Shown here: one piece after another, positions 7,005-54,707 of the stretch | Layout of the letters: every line of letters begins with the position of its first letter | Position numbering within the stretch: position 1 is the first letter of the stretch | NCBI GenBank assembly: GCA_000004695.1 | Contig: CM000154.2 | Span: 2,144,001 to 2,208,000, forward strand | DNA length: 64,000 nucleotides | Direction of reading: 5' to 3' | Source of the DNA: Dictyostelium discoideum | Taxonomy: Eukaryota | Notes under the pieces: generated by a model | Database searches by the model: none | The model's input: only the letters and a program-made list of their open reading frames with translations | Told to the model about the DNA's origin: nothing | Translations under genes and position numbers: made by a program

Positions 7005-7170
7005 CTTTTTTTTTTAAAATTAATTTATATAAATTTGTATATTTATACATTGTTGTTTTTGTTGGTTGTTGGTTGTTGGTTGTTATTGGTTAGTTGTTAG
7101 TTGTTAGTTGAATAATAAACAAATTTAATAATAATAATGTAAATATATAAATAAATAATTGGTATCTTAC

Positions 7171-7215
7171 ATTATCAATAACAACTGGCTGATTTGAAAA
7201 TTCAACAGAACTCAT
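7171..7215 (-). CDS. Actin-related protein 1 (centractin) exon 1 (ATG 7215-7213)
   Basis: MSSVEFSNQPVVIDN followed by GTAAGA (7170-7165). Joins in phase 0 to GSGVIKAGF, restoring the actin-fold VIDNGSG phosphate-1 loop. Total 1152 nt, 383 aa. Confidence 0.7.
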
Positions 7216-7417
7216 TTTAAAATGACCTTTATTATTTATATATTTTTGTTATTATTGTTGTTGTTGTTTGATTTATACAATTTTATTATACAATGTTAAC
7301 CTCGTTTGTTGTTTGGTTTTTATTTCCAGGTTGTTTGTGTTTTGGTGTAGTTGAGATCTTATAAATAAGAATTGTGATTAGTCGTCACCTTTGTTTATGT
7401 ACCACAATTATATTTTT

Positions 7418-7454
<37 letters not shown>

Positions 7455-7470
7455 AAAAAAGTGATTGTTC

Positions 7471-7504
<34 letters not shown>

Positions 7505-8188
7505 TATTTTTTTTTTTTTTTTATAATTTTTTTTTTTTTTTTTTTTTTTTTTTTCATTGTAAAATACACACAAATTTAAAATAATGTTATTTCATTAAAA
7601 GGTAATTTTTTTTGCCTTTTATTTATTATTTTTTAAAAAAAAAAGTTAATAAATTTTCTCTTTATTTTTTTATTTTTTTTTTTTTTTTTTAGACCTTTTT
7701 TTTTACAACTGGAAAAAAGTTCTTGCAGGAACCTAACCCATTTTCCAAATTGTTTAAATTCAATCATTTCTTTTTATTAACATTTTTTCTTTAAATTAAA
7801 TAAAGTTAAAACCAAAAAAAAAAAAAAAAAAAATAAAAATCCCACAAAAAAAAAAAAAAAAAACTTTTGGACAATTATTTTAAAAATAAAACCAAATAAA
7901 TTTATATATATCTTAATTTGGAAATTTTTTTATTTTTGTTCTATTTTTATCTTTTTATTATATTTTTATTTTAATTTTTTTTCTTTTTTTTATTTTTATC
8001 TTTTTATTATATTTTTAATATTATTTATTTTTTTTTTTTTTAATTTTATTTTTTTAAATTTTTTTTTTTTTTTTTTTTTTGATTTGAGCAATGAAACTGT
8101 TTTTTTTTTTTTTTTTTTTTTTTTTTATTTTTTGTTTTAAAATAAATAAAAAACGAGTTATAGTTCATATGAACTATTTTTTGTTCAA
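7216..8188. promoter_or_regulatory. Divergent intergenic promoter region shared by Arp1 (-) and mitochondrial ValRS (+)
   Basis: About 970 bp between two divergent start codons. Contains a G/T-rich block (7300-7400) and long homopolymer T/A tracts typical of Dictyostelium promoters. Inferred from position only. Confidence 0.35.
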
Positions 8189-8296
8189 ATGAATAAACTA
8201 TTATTTTTATCAAAAAAATCATCAACATCAAATTTATATAGATTTTATAGTAGAGCACCAATAAATGAATCTTCAATAAAATCATCATTTGATCCT
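8189..8296 (+). CDS. Valyl-tRNA synthetase, mitochondrial-type, exon 1 (presequence)
   Basis: MNKLLFLSKKSSTSNLYRFYSRAPINESSIKSSFDP is basic and hydroxylated with no acidic residues, like a mitochondrial targeting peptide. Donor GTAAGT at 8297. Confidence 0.6.
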
Positions 8297-8339
8297 GTAA
8301 GTATATTTTTTTTTTTTTTTTAAAATTCACAAATTTTAA

Positions 8340-8381
<42 letters not shown>

Positions 8382-8382
8382 G

Positions 8383-11300
8383 AAAGTTGTTGAAGAATTT
8401 AAATATAAATATTGGCAAGATAGTGGATTATTTAAACCAAAATCAAATAATGGTGGTGAAAAATTTTCAATGGTATTACCACCACCAAATGTAACAGGAT
8501 CATTACATATTGGACATAGTTTAACAACTACAATTCAAGATTCATTGATTAGATATAATCGTATGATGGGCAAAGAAGTATTATGGGTACCAGGATTGGA
8601 TCATTCTGGAATTGCAACTCAAGTTGCAGTTGAGAAAGAATTACAAGTGAAACAAGGTAAAACTAGATTCGATTTAGGTAGAGAGAAATTTTTAGAACAA
8701 GTTTTCCAATGGACTGATCAATACTCGAGTAATATTAATAATCAGTTAAAGATAACAGGTTCGTCATTGGATTGGAGTAGATCAGTGTTTACATTGGATG
8801 AACAAAGAAACGATGCAGTTCAAACGGCGTTTATTAGAATGTTTGAAATGGGCTTGATTTATAGGTCCACTAGATTGGTTAATTGGTGTCCATATTTGCA
8901 ATCGGTGATTTCAGATATTGAGGTTGATCATAAGGTAATTGAGAAACCAACAATGTTAAAATTAAAGAGTAGAAAGAAGTCAGTTGAAGTTGGTGCAATT
9001 CATAATATTGCCTATATGATGGAGGATCCAATGTTGGCACCATTGATTGTTAGTACTACGAGACCAGAGACGATATTTGGTGATACGGGTCTAGCCATTC
9101 ATCCATTGGATGAGAGGTATAAGGATTATCATGGTAAATTTGCAATTCATCCATTTAATCATGAAAGAATACCAATAGTGTTGGATGATATTTTAGTGAA
9201 TAGAGAGATGGGTACTGGTGTGGTAAAGATTACACCAGCTCATGATTTCAATGATTATCAATGTGGTCAAAGACATTCATTGCCAATTGTAAATATTTTA
9301 AATTCAAATGGTACTCTAAATGAAAATTCAACAGCAGAGTTTGAAGGTGTTGATAGATTGGATGCAAGATCAATGGTAATTGAAAAACTTGAACAAATGG
9401 GATTATATAGAGAGAAATTAGCACATCCACAAACATTATCAATTTGTAGTAGATCTGGTGATCTATTAGAACCAGTGTTAAAACCACAATGGTATGTTAA
9501 ATGTAAAGATATGGCTGATAAATCAATAGAGTTTGTTGAATCTGGTGAAATTAAAATCATACCAGAATCATTCCGTGCAGATTGGTCAAGATGGTTAACT
9601 AATATTCAAGATTGGTGTATATCAAGACAGTTATGGTGGGGTAATCCTATACCTGCCTATAGAGTTATAATGATTGATAAGGTGACTAATGAGGATTTAG
9701 ATATTCATTTAACAGAAACTGAAAGATTAAAACAAGAGAAATGGGTAGTTGGTAAAAATGAAAAAGAAGCAAGAGAAAATGTATTCAAAACTTATGGTAT
9801 CGCCAATGCTGGTGAATATCGTTTAGAGAAGGATCAAGATGTATTGGATACTTGGTTTTCATCTGGACTTTTCCCAATTTCATCAATGGGTTGGCCAACA
9901 GCAACAAAGAATAGTGATAATGATAATGATTTTTCAAGATTTTTACCATTAGATGTTATGGAGACTGGTTCTGATATTCTATTCTTTTGGGTTGCAAGAA
10001 TGGTAATGATGTGTTCCACTCTTAATAATGGTGAAGTACCATTTAAAACCATTCTATTACATCCAATGATTAGAGATTCACAAGGCAGAAAAATGTCAAA
10101 AAGTTTAGGAAATGTAATAGATCCATTACATGTTATCAATGGTATATCATTACAAGATCTTAAAGAGAATCTTTCAAAATCTAATCTTTCACAACAAGAG
10201 AAAGTCACAGCAACCAAAGGTTTAGAAAAAGAATTTCCTCAAGGTATTCCACAATGTGGTACTGATTCATTACGTTTTTCATTAGCTCAATATCCAATCA
10301 ATGGTAAAGATATTAATTTAGATATTTCAAAAATTATTGGTAATCGTTTATTTTGTAATAAACTTTGGAATGCTTCAAAATTTGTTTTTAATTATTTAGT
10401 AAATTTAAATAATCTATCAATTAATTTATATTATAATAATAATAATAATGAAAAAGATCAGCAACAACCATTTAATTATTTAGAATCAACAACATTAATT
10501 GATAAATGGATATTATTAAAATTATCAAAATTAGTTGAAATTGTAAATGAATCATATAAGAGTAATAATTTATCAATTGCAGCACAATCATTATATTCAT
10601 TCTTTCAATATGATTTTTGTGATATTTATATTGAATGTATTAAAGCGGATTTATCGAAACCAATTCTATCAAAACAAAATGAACATTCATCATTGGTATT
10701 GGCAAGTGTATTAGATAGTTATCTTAGAATGCTTCACCCATTTATGCCATTTATAACTGAAGATCTTTGGCAAAGATTACCAAAATCTAAACAACAATTA
10801 GAGATTGCAAACTCTATTGAAATTGATGATTCATTATCAATTATGATTTCAGATTATCCAAATCCATCCTATAAATATCATCAATTATTTAAAAATCAAG
10901 AAATTGAAATTGAAAAACAAGTTAATCTATTCCTTGATACTTTAAAACTAATTAGATCTCAAAAAGTTTCATTAGGAATAAATGAAAAAACAAAATTAAT
11001 TATAAAATTACAAATTATAGGTGATGATCAAATTTTAATTAAATCAAGTTTTAATCAACTAAAAGATTCATTTGAAAAATTATTAAATTCAAATTTAATA
11101 ATTGATGAAAATAATAATAATGATAATAATAATAATAATGATAATAATGATTTAACAAATATATCAATAAATAAATTTACAATTTCAAAAGAATTACAAA
11201 TTTCAATTGAATTTGATAAAGAAATTAATAATCAATTAAATCAAAAATTAATTAATCCAAATCAATCAAATGATAAAAAGATTTTAAAATTAGAAAATTT

Positions 11301-14864: not shown

Positions 14865-15002
14865 ACAAAATTAGAAGATGAAGAGAAAAATATTAAAAAA
14901 TATTTAAATGGAGAATTAACAGATACACAAAGAATATCTTTGCAAAATAGGATGGACGAAATTAAAATTATAAAATCTAAACAATATCCAGTACCAAATT
15001 AA
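14865..15002 (+). CDS. Twin Cx9C (CHCH-domain) protein, exon 2 (stop TAA 15000-15002)
   Basis: Acceptor TAG at 14862-14864. Phase-0 continuation TKLEDEEKNIKKYLNGELTDTQRISLQNRMDEIKIIKSKQYPVPN*. 100 aa in total. Confidence 0.55.
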   Translation, partial: TKLEDEEKNIKKYLNGELTDTQRISLQNRMDEIKIIKSKQYPVPN

Positions 15003-15005
15003 AAA

Positions 15006-15150
15006 ATTTAAAATAATAAAATAATCGATTACTTTATTATTAAAAAAAAAAATAATAATAATAATAAAATAAAATTTAATTGGTGATATATAAATTTATT
15101 TTTTTGTTTTTTAATTTAAAATAATAAAATAATCGATTACTTTATTATTT
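15006..15150. repeat. Direct repeat of about 35 bp (TTTAAAATAATAAAATAATCGATTACTTTATTATT) in two copies about 107 bp apart
   Basis: Copies start near 15006 and 15113, immediately 3' of the CHCH gene stop. Confidence 0.7.
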
Positions 15151-15307
15151 TAAAAAAAAAAAAAAAAAAAATTTAATGATATAATTATTCAATTTAAAAA
15201 CCTAAAAAATAAATTCAAAGCATATATCAAAAAATTCTTTTCACTCTATTTTTTTTTATTTTTTATTACCTACCATCATTAGTAATTAGATTTCTAAATA
15301 ATATCTG

Positions 15308-15615: not shown

Positions 15616-16638
15616 ATGAGAGATGTTATTAGAGCTTGGATTCCAATTGATACAAATGTAAATGCACCAAATTATCAAATTCCAAATTTTGAAAATCAAA
15701 AAGATTTATTTGTTGCAATGTTAGCACCAAGTGAAAATGAACCACCTTCACCACCATCAAATCCACATTCTTACAATGAACCAAAAGATGAAAAGGATAA
15801 GAAAATTGATGAATTAACTTTAGATTGGATTGACACTATGAGTTACTCACACAATGTTTCATCAAATTCAAAAGAGTCACATCTTGGTGAATTAACATTA
15901 ACCAAATTTGTTTGTGACCGTTCACCATCATTGAATTATATGGCATTACGTCGTGAAATCATTCCTCATATTATTCATCGTTGTATTGGTAAAATGAAGG
16001 ATAATGTACTCCCAATCATTGAATATGAATTACATTATTGTACATTGAGAAATGTTTCCATCTCTGGTGGTGTCGGTGGAAAACCAGTTGAAACATTATC
16101 AATTGCATGTAAAATCATGATTATAAAGAATATTAAAATCAATGTTGAATCTGGTGAATTATTATGTTACCAAGTTTGCAACTGGGATACTCTTAAGGAA
16201 ACTGGCTCAAAGACAATTCGTCCATCAATTAATGGTACTTCAACAAAATCATCCTTATTAGATTTAGCAAAGAAACGTTTAATGGTTGATTTCGATTCTC
16301 ATGATCCCTCAATGATTAAATTATTAAAAGATCTTGGAATTGTATCTGAATATAATTTACCACATTCAGATAATAGTAATGTTGATGAAACTGAGTTCCA
16401 TAGAGTTATGATTAATAAAGAACCCCCACTATTCCAAGTACTTGATTTACCACCAACACGTACTTTAACAGTTGAAAAAGTTAAAAAATCAATCTCTGAT
16501 AAACTTAATATTCCATTAGATACAATCAAACATTTATTTAATCATTCAAATGGTATCTTGATTGATTCTCCAAAAATTTTAAAAATTTCAACTTCATATA
16601 TGGTACAACTTACCGATGGTAAATTCTATGGTCATTAA
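15616..16638 (+). CDS. Hypothetical protein, 340 aa, intronless
   Basis: Long ORF with non-AT codon usage and a poly-A leader before ATG 15616. No family recognised from MRDVIRAWIPIDTNVNAPNYQIPNFENQKDLFVAMLAPSENEPPSPPS...LTDGKFYGH. Confidence 0.6.
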   Translation: MRDVIRAWIPIDTNVNAPNYQIPNFENQKDLFVAMLAPSENEPPSPPSNPHSYNEPKDEKDKKIDELTLDWIDTMSYSHNVSSNSKESHLGELTLTKFVCDRSPSLNYMALRREIIPHIIHRCIGKMKDNVLPIIEYELHYCTLRNVSISGGVGGKPVETLSIACKIMIIKNIKINVESGELLCYQVCNWDTLKETGSKTIRPSINGTSTKSSLLDLAKKRLMVDFDSHDPSMIKLLKDLGIVSEYNLPHSDNSNVDETEFHRVMINKEPPLFQVLDLPPTRTLTVEKVKKSISDKLNIPLDTIKHLFNHSNGILIDSPKILKISTSYMVQLTDGKFYGH

Positions 16639-16672
16639 ATAAAATAAATAAAGTTTTTCTATTTATTTAATT

Positions 16673-16703
<31 letters not shown>

Positions 16704-17697
16704 AGTTATGTTAAATTTTAATATGAATAAAAATAAATAATTCAAAATATTCAATATATTAATTGAAATCATTAAATAATCTGTTATTGATTGATTTATA
16801 TTTATTATTATTATTTTTATAAAGTGTTGCCATTTGAAATTGATTTATTTTAATACTTTAACCACTGCCAATACTAATGACATCAATAGAATTTAAACTT
16901 GATAAAACTTTTAATTACAAGGATTTCTTTTGAAGAGTATCAAGAGTTGTTTCGTGAGTTGCAATTCTGTTGACTGTGGTGGATATGGTGATTGATGATG
17001 TTGCATTTAGTGGTGATGAATATTACATTTTTAGTGATTCCGCTTGGTCAATGTTAACATTGACTGCTTTGATTTATATTATTATTATTATTATTATTAT
17101 TATCACTATTTGGAAATTCCATTGACCCACTTAGTAGATTATTCGTTATATTACCTCTTGAACTATTTCTTGATCTTTCACTTCTATGCTCTCAATCTTT
17201 TGATATTCTTGAACGATCTATGTATCGGGAATATTTTCAATTCTCTATCTGATTTTTGAAATAATTACCTAGTTCTGTTTACAAATACTCTATCACCTGA
17301 CTAAATTTAGTTGTTGTAGCTTCAAATAGTGCAACTTCACTGGATTTTTTAAATAACTAAATCAAATCTTTGCCAACACACCAATTTATTGATGGTATCT
17401 TCTTCTATACCCAATCCTAATTGAGAATTCATCTTCACTGGTTTTATAGATTTTTTTATTGAATTTTCATATGTCAAGATTACCAAGAATGCTTGGAATT
17501 GTACCGAGTAAAATAAAATGAAAAAAAATAAAATAAAATAAAATAAAAAGTGTTAAATAAAGGGAAAGGTCAAAATAAAAGAAATGAGAGATAATTTTCA
17601 TTTATTATTTAAATAAATACCAAACTCTTGGTCGATGTAAATATTTTTTTTTTTTTTTTAAATAAATGTGTAAAGAGATATATATGGGTAATGGAAA

Positions 17698-17749
<52 letters not shown>

Positions 17750-18209
17750 AAATAAAAAAAATTTTTAAAAATTTTAAAAAAAGATTTATATATACCAAAA
17801 GAAGAGAAAAAAAAAAATTTTTGTGATTGGTAGTTTCTGAGAAAAAAATGAAAAAAAAAAAAAAAATAAAAATATTTTTACTATTCATATTAAGTTATAA
17901 TTTCTTGGTAAACCAAGAATTTTCAAAAAAAAATTTCGATCTGAGAAGATCAAAAAAAAAAAAAAAAATTAAAAAAATAAAAAAAAAATAAAAAAAAAAT
18001 AAAAAAAAAAAAAATTCGAAGAAGATATGATTTTAGAGATATTTTTTTTTTTTGTTTTTTTAATTTTTTTTTTTTTTTTTTTTTAAAAATAAAACTCCCA
18101 ACTGAAATTTTTTGCTATAAAACTTTTTTTTCAAGTCATTATTTTAACAACAATAAAAGAGTCAAAGTAATTTGTATAACAGTAATAATAATAATAATAA
18201 TAATTTGTA

Positions 18210-18256
<47 letters not shown>

Positions 18257-18284
18257 TATAAAAAAAAAATAAAAAAATAAAAAA

Positions 18285-18564
18285 ATGATTGAAATAAATA
18301 AATTAAAATCATTTGAAGAAGATAAACAAAATATCTTTCAAACTTTTTTAACAAGTGAAAATGATACCAACTTACTTTTCACCACAGCAAAAAAGTTTTT
18401 AGAAAATAAGAATCCAGAACCAACTTTAACAATTAAAATTTGTGAAAAAATTCATAAGATCTATGAAGAAAAAGAGATTCAAAATAAAAAAATCAATTCA
18501 ATTATCCAAGAAGAAGAAAATTGGAAATTAAGTATTTCAAAAGAATTACAAAATAAACATCATG
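18285..18564 (+). CDS. Large helical protein (1471 aa), exon 1
   Basis: MIEINKLKSFEEDKQNIFQTFLTSENDTNLLF...ELQNKHH then G, followed by GTAAGT at 18565. Joins in phase 1 to the exon starting at 18663. Confidence 0.6.
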
Positions 18565-18615
18565 GTAAGTTTATTATTATTATTATTTTTATTATTATTT
18601 TAATTATTATTAATT

Positions 18616-18656
<41 letters not shown>

Positions 18657-18662
18657 AATTAG

Positions 18663-27048: not shown

Positions 27049-27082
<34 letters not shown>

Positions 27083-27214
27083 TATATTATTGTTAATACT
27101 ACTATTATTTAACAATGGTTTTTGTTGTAATTTTAAATGTTGTTGTAATTTTAAATGTTTAAATAATAAATTCATTTTAAATAGTTTTTTATTAAATAGA
27201 CTTCCACAATCATT

Positions 27215-27217
<3 letters not shown>
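26036..27217 (-). CDS. F-box / armadillo-repeat protein, exon 1 (ATG 27217-27215)
   Basis: N/Q-rich N-terminal half, then IPTEMLVHLLSFLSANDLWRISLTCKRIWYIVDVFKFWELLF, a canonical F-box (LP.E.L..I.S.L...DL.....VCK.W). Exon ends ..LPT followed by GTAAGA (26035-26030). The ORF track continues to a stop at 26021, but that would miss the in-frame spliced continuation into the ARM repeats. Total 757 aa. Confidence 0.6.
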
Positions 27218-27257
<40 letters not shown>

Positions 27258-27462
27258 TTTTAATAATAAATAATTAATTAATTATTATTATTATGGTCAC
27301 TTTGGATGATAGTTAAAAATATTCTTCCTTTTTCTATGTGTTGTTTTTGCTGTTATTGTTGAAAAGTATTATATTGTTGTTTTTGTTATCGTCTTTATTT
27401 GAGTTTATGTATTAAAAGTTGTTTATATAAATTATATATATATATATATATAAATTATTTAT

Positions 27463-27557
27463 ATGTATGTATGTGTTGGAGTGTGGAAGTGTGTGGGTGT
27501 GTGGTGTGGTTGGAGTGTGGAAGTGTGGGGTGGTGTGGGGGTATGTGTGTGTGTGTA
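27463..27557 (+). repeat. G/T-rich tandem duplication (2 copies of GTTGGAGTGTGGAAGTGTGG.. with GGGG runs)
   Basis: The only G-rich block for several kb, about 250 bp upstream of the F-box/ARM gene ATG. See findings. Confidence 0.8.
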
Positions 27558-27773
27558 GAGACTATGATTTTATATTTGTTTTATTATTTATAAAATAAAA
27601 AAATATAATCACTATAAATTATTGTTTTTATTTATTTTGAATAATTTTGAGGTTATGATCAAATTTAATGGTAAGAGATTTTATGGTTAGTTTTGGTATT
27701 CTTTTTAAATTTTGATTAGTGAGTGATTTTTGGTTAGATAGTGGTATATGTGTGTTTGTTAAATTTGGTTTGA

Positions 27774-27864
<91 letters not shown>

Positions 27865-28145
27865 TTTGTTTCTATAACTTTGGAAACGACAAAGATAGAA
27901 TTTAATATATATATGTATAAAAAAAAAAATAATAAAAAAAAAAAATAAAATAATGAATTAAAAAAATAATTTTTATTATTTTTTAAAATAAAATTTTTAT
28001 TTTAAATAATTTGTTTAATGTTGGGATTGGAAATAAAATTTAATTTTGAATTTAATATATATATTTCCTAATTTATATATATTTATTATTTTTATTTATA
28101 TTTATGACAACTTAAAATTATTATTATTATTTTTTATTATTCTAA

Positions 28146-28226
<81 letters not shown>

Positions 28227-28501: not shown

Positions 28502-28601
28502 NNNNNNNNNNNNNNNNNNNNNNNNNNNNNNNNNNNNNNNNNNNNNNNNNNNNNNNNNNNNNNNNNNNNNNNNNNNNNNNNNNNNNNNNNNNNNNNNNNN
28601 N
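28502..28601. other. Assembly gap (100 N)
   Basis: Run of n. Confidence 1.
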
Positions 28602-28668: not shown

Positions 28669-29023
28669 TTTTTTTTCCCTTAATTACTTTTAATTTCTTT
28701 AGAGCTGAAAATGTCGATCGAAAAAATAATTTATTATTTAAATTTGTTTTAACCTTAATTTTTTATCCACATTAACATTGTTTTTTTTTTTTTTTTAAAT
28801 AAAAAAAAAAATTATATAGGATATTTCCATTTAATATTTATTTTTAAAAATTATTACAATACAAAATAAAATAAATAAATAAAATCGTTATTGAACTTAA
28901 TATTTTTTAACAATTATTTTTTTCCCTTTGAAATTAATGTTTTATTTTATTGAAATTTAAAAAGTTTGATAATCATTACTAATTGATCGTTATTTTTATT
29001 TTTTAATTATTATTATTTTTATT

Positions 29024-29088
<65 letters not shown>

Positions 29089-33136: not shown

Positions 33137-34098
33137 GTGTCATGAAATTTGATTTTCCAGCTTTTTGTTTTTTTTTAAAAAAAAAAAAAAAAAAATTTAA
33201 AACTAAAAAAAAGAAAAACAAAAATATTTTGTTTTGATTTGATTATTTGATTATTTGATTATTTATTTTTTATTTTTTTTATTTATAAAGTTTTGGTTAT
33301 GTGTGATTTTATTCATTTAAAAAAATATTTTTTAAATTAACAATATTTACATTTAATTTTTTTACACAGGAGGCCTCCATTTCATTAGATTCTTGAATTG
33401 GAACATGCGGAGCACTAATCATTTTGGATTTATTTGATGAGGGATAATAAGAGGAAAAGAAAAATAAAAAAAATTCTGAATTTTTAAGATTAATCTTAAA
33501 GCACCCAAAAGTTTTTACTTTGTCACAGCGGATATAGAAGATCATCAACCTAAATTAAAATAAACTATTAAAAAAATAAAACACCATTAAATTGGATGGG
33601 GGTGATAGGTTATTTTAATTAAAAAATAGTATTTCCAAAAAAAAAATATTTAATTTGCCAAATTAACATAATTCAAAAATATTCATAACATTGTTTTATG
33701 CTATTGAGTTGGTCAATATTTGAAAATAAAAAAAAATGAAAAAAAAAAAAAAAAATGAAAAAAAAATTTAAATCTAAAATGAAAAAAAAAAAAAATTTGA
33801 AAAATGGAATACGAATTTTTTATTTTTTTCTTTTTTCGTATTTTCATAATTGATTTATTAAAATAATCTTGTGTGTGATTTTATCCAATTATTTTATTTA
33901 TTAGATAAAAAATATATATATATATATACATTAAATTTTAATAGGAATCCTTGGAAAATCTAATTAATAAATTAAAACTGGATTTAAAATAAAATTGTTA
34001 AAATTTTATATTAATTATTATTTTAATTTGATTACCTATTATTTGATTCTTTTTTTATTTCTTTTGAATAACTAAAAAGAAAATAATTTTTTTTTTTT

Positions 34099-35252: not shown

Positions 35253-35729
35253 TCTTTTTTTTTTTCTTTTTTAAAAAATTCTAATTTTTACTATAAATAA
35301 TTATTTTTTTTTTTCTTTTTTTTTAACAACAAGCTTATGGGAAAATAAAAAAATAAAAAAAAAAAAAAAAAAAAAAAAAGCCATATATATATTTTTTTTT
35401 TTTTTTTTATTTTATATTTTTTTAGTTAAATAAAGAAATATATTATACATCATAATTCGAAATAACATTTTTGGTTTGCCAATCACCCATATATTTTTTT
35501 TAATCATAATTTTAGTTTGATTTTCAAAAACATTTTTGATTTTTTTCACTTTTTCACTTTTTTTTTTTTTTTTCTATTCAACAATAATTTTTTAAATCAT
35601 AGTAAATAATAATAATAATTTTGTTTTAAATACATTTGTATTGTTTTTTTTTTTCACATACCAAATTTGTTTTTTTAAATCTAAATCAATATTTTTTTAT
35701 TATTAAATTTTTTTTTTTTTTTTTCTTAA

Positions 35730-37312
<1,583 letters not shown>

Positions 37313-46714: not shown

Positions 46715-46761
<47 letters not shown>

Positions 46762-47292
46762 AAAATAATATTAATCATTAATTTTAATTTCACATTATAA
46801 TTGTATTAAAGTGATATATTTATAATAACGAAAAAAAAATTTAATTAAAATAATTTGCCAAATAATAATTTAAAATTCTAATTTTGTTCAATTATTTTGG
46901 GTAATTTAAAAAAAAAACTAGAATTATTTATTCTATCGAAAACTAATAAAATAAAAAAAAAAAAAAAAAAAAAAATTAACTTTAATTTACTAATCTTTTA
47001 TAAAAAAAAAAAAAATCCTTTCTTATTTCCAATTAATAATAGGAAAATTAAAATCTTTGTTTAAATTCAATTTTATAATTTTAAAAGATAAAAAGTATTA
47101 AATATTAATTTTTTTTCAAGTGTTGTTTTTTTTTTTTCCCCTTTTTTGTGTGGTATCTATAATTCCTCAATTATTTTATAAATAAAAAAAATAACATTTT
47201 TACTATTGTATTTTTATAATTTTTTTATTATAATCATTTTTTTTTTTGTTAAATTTTTAATATTTATTTATTTATTTTTTATAAGATGGAAA

Positions 47293-47328
<36 letters not shown>

Positions 47329-53485: not shown

Positions 53486-53585
53486 NNNNNNNNNNNNNNN
53501 NNNNNNNNNNNNNNNNNNNNNNNNNNNNNNNNNNNNNNNNNNNNNNNNNNNNNNNNNNNNNNNNNNNNNNNNNNNNNNNNNNNNN
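53486..53585. other. Assembly gap (100 N); also a single n at 53420
   Basis: Run of n. Confidence 1.
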
Positions 53586-54057: not shown

Positions 54058-54402
54058 TTAAAATTTTTAACACCAACCACCAATTTTTTTTTTTTTTTTT
54101 TTTTAATTGTACTTAAAATAAAATAAATTTTGTATAAATATTAATATTGTATTATTAAAATAGATAAACCATTATAAATCTACAGCCAAAAAAAAAAAAA
54201 AAAACAAAAAAATAAAATAAAATAAAAAAAAAACAGAAAAAGATTATATCATTAGTTTTGAAAAACTGGGTGTTTCTTCTTTTGTTTTTAAAATTTTTTT
54301 TTTTTTTTTTTTTTTCTTTAAAGCCACACACATACTAGCAATAAACAATAATAACAAAACTAAAATCAACTAAAAGAGAAATAGAAAAAAAAAAAAAAAA
54401 AG

Positions 54403-54586
54403 ATGTCAAATTTAAATATAAATAGTCAAGCACAAAATTCACCAGATCCAACAAGGAGATCGTTTGGTACTGGTGGTAGTGGTAGTACATTTTCACCAGG
54501 CGGTAGCGATTCAAGAATTATGAGTGTAAATATTGTCGATATTATTGGACAACAAGATCATGTAAAAAGCGAAATTTTAGCAAAAA
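54403..54586 (+). CDS. IQGAP-related RasGAP-domain protein (DGAP1/GAPA family), exon 1
   Basis: MSNLNINSQAQNSPDPTRRSFGTGGSGSTFSPGGSDSRIMSVNIVDIIGQQDHVKSEILAKSK then A, followed by GTAAGA at 54587. Confidence 0.5.
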
Positions 54587-54707
54587 GTAAGAAATCTAAA
54601 AAATACATATACCCTCTATTATCATTATAATATCTTTTTATTTTTAAAAATATTATATAATATAAATATATCAATTAATCATAATAATAATAAATAATTT
54701 ACTAATA

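Follow-up and report, generated by a model that had tools for sequence, protein, structure and literature searches.

A probable orphan-gene remnant, annotated as DDB_G0288945, in an AT-rich spacer of Dictyostelium discoideum chromosome 5

Unitary (orphan) pseudogenes and dubious open reading frames, such as those of the yeast 'dubious' class, combine exon-like composition with a residual codon signal and disabling frameshifts or stop codons; they lack conservation in close relatives, and their short gene models are dropped by later annotation. All of these traits are shared by a mixed-composition island that we analyzed in a 64-kb stretch of Dictyostelium discoideum DNA (64,000 nucleotides, hereafter the window, whose positions are used throughout). 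The island differs from unitary pseudogenes in that no functional parent or orthologue was found and in that its disabling mutations are read from the frames only. Two other kinds of described sequence resemble it in part. Relics of Dictyostelium transposons (DIRS-1, Skipper, DGLT-A, TRE5/TRE3, Tdd, and thug) are likewise less AT-rich than the spacers and often ORF-broken, but the island has no element domain, terminal repeats, or tRNA neighbor and is single copy in the window. The intergenic long non-coding RNAs (lncRNAs) of D. discoideum, of which 621 models with a median length of 628 bp have been published, are like the island in length, intergenic place, and missing ORF, whereas the island differs by its G+C content of 28.9% against their median of 17%, by its codon periodicity, and by its absence among the published models (Rosengarten et al., 2016; PMC5295588). 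We consider it rather likely that a lineage-restricted (orphan) protein-coding gene once lay here on the minus strand, that the island is its decaying remnant, and that this remnant survives in the reference annotation as the dubious model DDB_G0288945.

Composition, reading frames, and RNA signals of the island

The island lies on chromosome 5 at about chr5:2,160,850-2,161,520 (window coordinate = chr5 - 2,143,997, with an uncertainty of ~10 bp, from gene coordinates in the supplements of PMC5295588). The initial annotation had described a sharp rise in base composition at this place, which our measurements bear out: the G+C content is 0.289 at 16850-17520 versus 0.095 at 16639-16849 and 0.126 at 17521-18284. 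In 200-nt windows it is 0.265-0.30 in the island, 0.10-0.15 outside, and 0.29-0.33 in neighboring exons. The two sequence strings that had been quoted as standing out are both there, at 16981-17026 and 17041-17068. We scanned the whole 64 kb for 300-nt stretches with a G+C content of at least 0.25 and without an open frame of at least 100 codons. The island gave 12 successive matches (16751-17301) versus at most 4 at any other place; it is the largest ORF-free stretch of such composition in the 64 kb. Other, shorter stretches of this kind lie at ~54251-54700, 801-1350, and 33301-33650; the first two may be short exons, and the third is inside the lncRNA model CUFF_4268. Assembly gaps in the reference account for 301 N in the window, the first at 28502 and the last at 53585.

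No ATG-initiated ORF of more than 45 codons was found in the island on either strand. The only longer ones are two TTG-started ORFs of 51 and 71 codons on the plus strand, whose products are implausible (runs of Y or I). When introns were limited to 15% G+C, no spliced ATG frame of more than 44 codons was found on the minus strand. Introns of such AT-richness are normal for the D. discoideum genome. Relaxing the limit to 20% G+C raised the longest spliced frame to 64 codons. The earlier statement that there is no clean splice-joined frame needs one correction, as the AX4 annotation does join a 61-aa two-exon model through an atypical intron (see below). In a second D. discoideum assembly (GCA_054883475.1) the island sequence is identical, and homopolymer lengths differ outside the island only; sequencing errors in a single assembly therefore do not explain the broken frames. 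The two assemblies differ by 1 mismatch and 6 gaps over 13 kb, a near-identity that suggests that both may share one laboratory lineage.

The 340-aa ORF at 15616-16638 is the hypothetical protein DDB_G0288943 of AX4 (100% identical), which is also present on the 5.29-Mb chromosome of GCA_054883475.1. We considered whether the island is a 3' exon or untranslated region of this gene and rejected it: the protein ends at the same point in all orthologues, AATAAA-type signals follow directly after the stop codon, and the sense strand of the island is opposite. As a separate observation, DDB_G0288943 and its dictyostelid relatives show a sub-threshold Pfam match to Hcp (PF05638, E 0.001, 19.7 bits versus a cutoff of 23.5). 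Hcp is a type VI secretion protein of bacteria. Several species carry paralogues of this family, either in tandem or dispersed.

An RNA gene was among the options raised for the island. For a structured non-coding RNA, the initial annotation had proposed an Infernal-type scan; with Rfam 15 (E of at most 1, positions 16000-18400) it returned 0 matches. There is no excess folding relative to shuffled sequence (z = +0.19 on the minus strand and -0.93 on the plus strand), and neither a match to WCCCAYAA, the consensus of the Dictyostelium ncRNA promoter element DUSE, nor a site resembling the class I RNA consensus motif CCTTACAGCAA occurs in or near the island. Together with the lack of conservation in the sister species, these results leave a structured RNA unsupported. 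The island might also be a lncRNA locus, possibly a relic still transcribed from the spacer that it has in common with the gene at 18285, and we regard this as unlikely. Consistent with such a locus, the island is non-coding, measures ~0.65 kb, and adjoins a possible bidirectional promoter region, and several published lncRNA models lie elsewhere in the window (PMC5295588). The antisense and lncRNA models of that study in the window are CUFF_4264 (~14924-15227), CUFF_4265 (~27065-28146), CUFF_4266 (~28670-29048), CUFF_4268 (~33139-33990), CUFF_4270 (~35381-35733), and CUFF_4271/4272 (~46749-47307). Their G+C content is 11-18%, around the published median of 17% and far from the island's own value, and the numbering goes straight from CUFF_4264 to CUFF_4265 with no model in the island. 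This missing model is weak evidence at best, because the locus already had a gene model and reads from it would yield no novel one. The ordinary folding and the lack of conservation also speak against a lncRNA. We return to the reading of the island as former coding sequence; its features are collected in Table 1.

Table 1. Features of the island and its edges, in window coordinates
Feature	Position	Strand	Remarks
Mixed-composition island	16850..17520	.	28.9% G+C, flanked by AT-rich spacers
Relic path segment A	17352..17432	-	27 codons, ATG start
Relic path segment B	17057..17350	-	98 codons, 3 in-frame stops
Relic path segment C	16861..17064	-	68 codons, 2 in-frame stops
Possible former C-terminal extension	16759..16860	-	Segment C frame; SIKINQFQMATLYKNNNNKYKSINNRLFNDFN*; already AT-rich
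(AAT)9 repeat	17077..17103	-	Poly-Asn in segment B frame
Perfect 18-nt palindrome	17047..17064	.	GTCAATGTTAACATTGAC; at the segment B to C frame switch
Exon 1 of DDB_G0288945	17382..17432	-	MNSQLGLGIEEDTINKL; P0014 mapped to the window
Intron of DDB_G0288945	17189..17381	-	193 nt, GTGTGT...GAGAG, 29.5% G+C, atypical
Exon 2 of DDB_G0288945 with stop codon	17054..17188	-	HRSERSRNSSRGNITNNLLSGSMEFPNSDNNNNNNNNINQSSQC*; P0014 mapped to the window
Sole island part aligning with D. cf. discoideum	16782..16902	.	Edge, ~120 bp; 75-81% identity, L002 7380-7529

Coding signal on the minus strand and the model DDB_G0288945

The AT skew of the plus strand is -0.12 to -0.31 over the island, whereas it is positive in the plus-strand genes of the window on both sides; because the sign is opposite, we take the minus strand to be the sense strand. 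On this strand, a reading path of ~190 codons can be followed that is broken by two frameshifts and five stops. We trained a codon table on the window's long ORFs. With it, the three-segment path scored +20.4 bits versus -61.6 +/- 15.4 bits for composition-matched shuffles (n = 2000, of which none equaled it), and all plus-strand frames scored -42 to -59 bits. The path was chosen partly for few stops, and its codon score is therefore inflated; at 0.11 bit per codon, versus 0.25-0.48 for real genes, the signal is significant but weak. The score of segment B falls to about 0 once the poly-Asn run is left out, which is still above the shuffle expectation, though weakly so.

Split by codon position, the G+C content of segment B is 0.31/0.37/0.15 and that of segment C is 0.34/0.40/0.25, versus 0.40/0.34/0.16 for DDB_G0288943. 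The codon phase with the lowest G+C content changes near 17060, where the frame switches, as is expected of a frameshift. A perfect palindrome coincides with this switch. The 64 kb contains just two palindromes of this size with G/C, and such a palindrome is present in 46 out of 5000 island shuffles; a template-switch or hairpin mutation at this palindrome may lie behind the frameshift. Judged by frame statistics, the coding-looking sequence thus carries disabling mutations.

The former gene would have lain on the minus strand, convergent with DDB_G0288943 and divergent from the next gene (start at 18285), and we infer that it once encoded a protein of ~190-225 residues and that the island has no sequence-dependent function today. 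Its frame, in which we now count at least two frameshifts and five stop codons, would have been lost while the exon-like composition (~29% G+C) lingered long afterwards in the formerly coding DNA, which would be why the island stands out from spacers of 87-90% A+T.

The AX4 reference places DDB_G0288945 in the island, on the minus strand, with two exons and a 61-aa hypothetical protein as product (XP_636505.1, Q54I74). We recovered this model in a homology search, for which the least-interrupted minus-strand pieces in three frames were joined as a 193-residue, frameshift-corrected conceptual translation. An exhaustive HMMER search with this query against 1.84 billion representative proteins gave two matches, the top one being XP_636505.1 itself (P0014, 61 aa, E 2e-19, 100% identical over the two exons). 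Mapped back onto the window, it revealed that the island is already an annotated gene in the reference.

A genuine small gene that splices out the 193-nt intron and encodes a 61-aa Asn/Ser-rich protein is very unlikely in our view. The model does stand in the AX4 reference, RefSeq, and UniProt, it has an ATG start and an intron of the form GT...AG, and it is placed as a gene would be, with AT-rich spacers of its own on the 5' and 3' sides. Against this, the intron is neither AT-rich nor equipped with a GTAAGT donor: its G+C content is 29.5% and its splice sites are non-consensus, in contrast to the neighboring gene's intron (18566-18661), with its GTAAGT donor and about 2% G+C. Moreover, the stretch that is excised lies in the same frame as exon 2, shows coding-like periodicity, and contains three in-frame stops. 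Between the two neighbors, the newer GCA_054883475.1 annotation leaves the identical DNA without a gene. The model is also missing from the lists of differentially expressed genes in PMC4403905 that name DDB_G0288941, DDB_G0288943, and DDB_G0288947; our literature search found no mention of it, and supplements that name its neighbors omit it. Finally, tblastn of its product at the syntenic locus of D. cf. discoideum found nothing even at E of at most 1, and both D. citrinum and D. firmibasis lack the island. DDB_G0288945 is thus probably not a real 61-aa protein but a gene finder's salvage of a broken orphan gene; to obtain a 61-aa product, the AX4 gene finder would have invented a 193-nt intron that is not AT-rich.

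Searches for homologues and mobile elements

Among the 1.84 billion representative proteins, HMMER found no functional parent or orthologue of the island. We rejected the second match (P0015, 764 aa, E 2e-5) as a summed chance match, its score coming from four or five near-identical repeats that each match over ~41 residues at 32-34% identity. Neither the corrected translation nor a six-frame concatenate gave a match in word-index protein searches, a negative result that is weak, as these searches also missed DDB_G0288945 itself: the 61-aa protein was overlooked despite a query that held both exons exactly, and the exhaustive HMMER search alone recovered it. The negatives of such searches should therefore be read with caution for short or low-complexity proteins. 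Pfam searches of the corrected translation and of six frames gave sub-threshold noise only (Adenylate_cycl at 15 bits, DUF1015, Stanniocalcin), and neither blastn nor tblastn detected a paralogue or repeat of the island within the 64-kb window.

Inserted DNA that has since decayed, such as a piece of a transposon or of mitochondrial DNA, may also be ORF-broken; as an explanation of the island, we hold it to be distinctly unlikely. It would fit the perfect palindrome inside the island, an interior that is unalignable with the sister species, and the content of the same slot by species: none in two, ~430 bp in one, ~670 bp here, and ~2 kb in D. dimigraforme. However, the six-frame Pfam search contained no reverse transcriptase, integrase, transposase, gag, or organellar family, and HMMER gave no homologue. 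There are no terminal inverted or direct repeats and no target-site duplication, the only complementarity being that of poly(A) and poly(T) in the spacers. The 64-kb window holds no tRNA gene, which TRE elements would need, and the island is single copy within it. In addition, the in-frame poly-Asn run is typical of host genes. The decayed retroelement that had been suggested for this block accordingly finds no positive evidence, be it a Pfam domain, terminal repeats, a nearby tRNA gene, or a second copy in the window.

Of the options raised in the initial annotation, a pseudogene fits best, given the strand skew, codon usage, third-position dip in G+C, poly-Asn run, frameshifts, and stops. 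It had been proposed as a recent one; it is not demonstrably recent, and the databases hold no parent. Since no parent or intact homologue was found, we use the term 'pseudogene' on the strength of sequence statistics.

The same spacer in related species

We reached the syntenic loci of related species through the orthologues of DDB_G0288943; the next gene begins with MIEINKLKSFEED in all of them. For D. cf. discoideum (L002), identity in the flanking gene is 88% at the protein level and 87% at four-fold sites. The spacer there measures 1409 bp and contains a block of ~430 bp (L002 7400-7830) in which every frame is broken and no gene is annotated. The island interior does not align with this species: alignments are confined to the AT-rich edges and to 16782-16902, and a global alignment of the island with the D. 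cf. discoideum block scores no better than shuffles. In D. citrinum (L003), there is no island in a spacer of 845 bp, which has 6.5-14% G+C all along, and there is none in the 495-bp spacer of D. firmibasis (L006). The spacer of D. dimigraforme (L004) is 3.7 kb long and includes ~2 kb of ORF-poor sequence with 26-30% G+C and a negative AT skew (7168-9117). This block bears a minus-strand gene model of 156 aa (L004 7411-8476); it matches the D. discoideum block in ATT repeats only, and it has no Pfam domains. ORF-poor, exon-like blocks in the same spacer thus differ by species and are mutually unalignable.

These comparisons reveal that the island is under no visible selective constraint and that the content of the spacer turns over between species. 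The unaligned interior, despite 87% identity at four-fold sites, could mean that this interior was inserted or replaced after the split, and was not inherited and then decayed. A bolder view is that genes arise and disappear rapidly in the spacer after the DDB_G0288943 orthologue, or that this spacer captures DNA repeatedly, each species of the D. discoideum group having its own unalignable, ORF-poor block of exon-like composition there; that of D. discoideum could then be a young transcript or micro-protein gene specific to its lineage, rather than dead DNA. We give this view little credence, and continue to favor an orphan-gene remnant.

We also compared the island with the paralogous Hcp-like locus, where a gene of 186-201 aa with a long poly-Asn tract lies convergent, like the island (L005 7263-7963 and L007 7323-8021, both on the minus strand). 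By eye only, this gene is Ctf8-like. That the island is a decayed copy of this gene downstream of the paralogous Hcp-like gene was rejected (BLASTP E 0.3).

Overall, the island is real but ordinary, and the locus already carried a reference gene model. The significance of our findings is small and chiefly concerns annotation: because DDB_G0288945 (XP_636505.1, Q54I74) looks like a model rescued from a broken orphan gene, it deserves a dubious or pseudogene label. Beyond this model, the published lncRNA models in the same window are far more AT-rich than the island, and in an extremely AT-rich genome such as this one, dead coding sequence is well marked by islands that have exon-like composition but no ORF.
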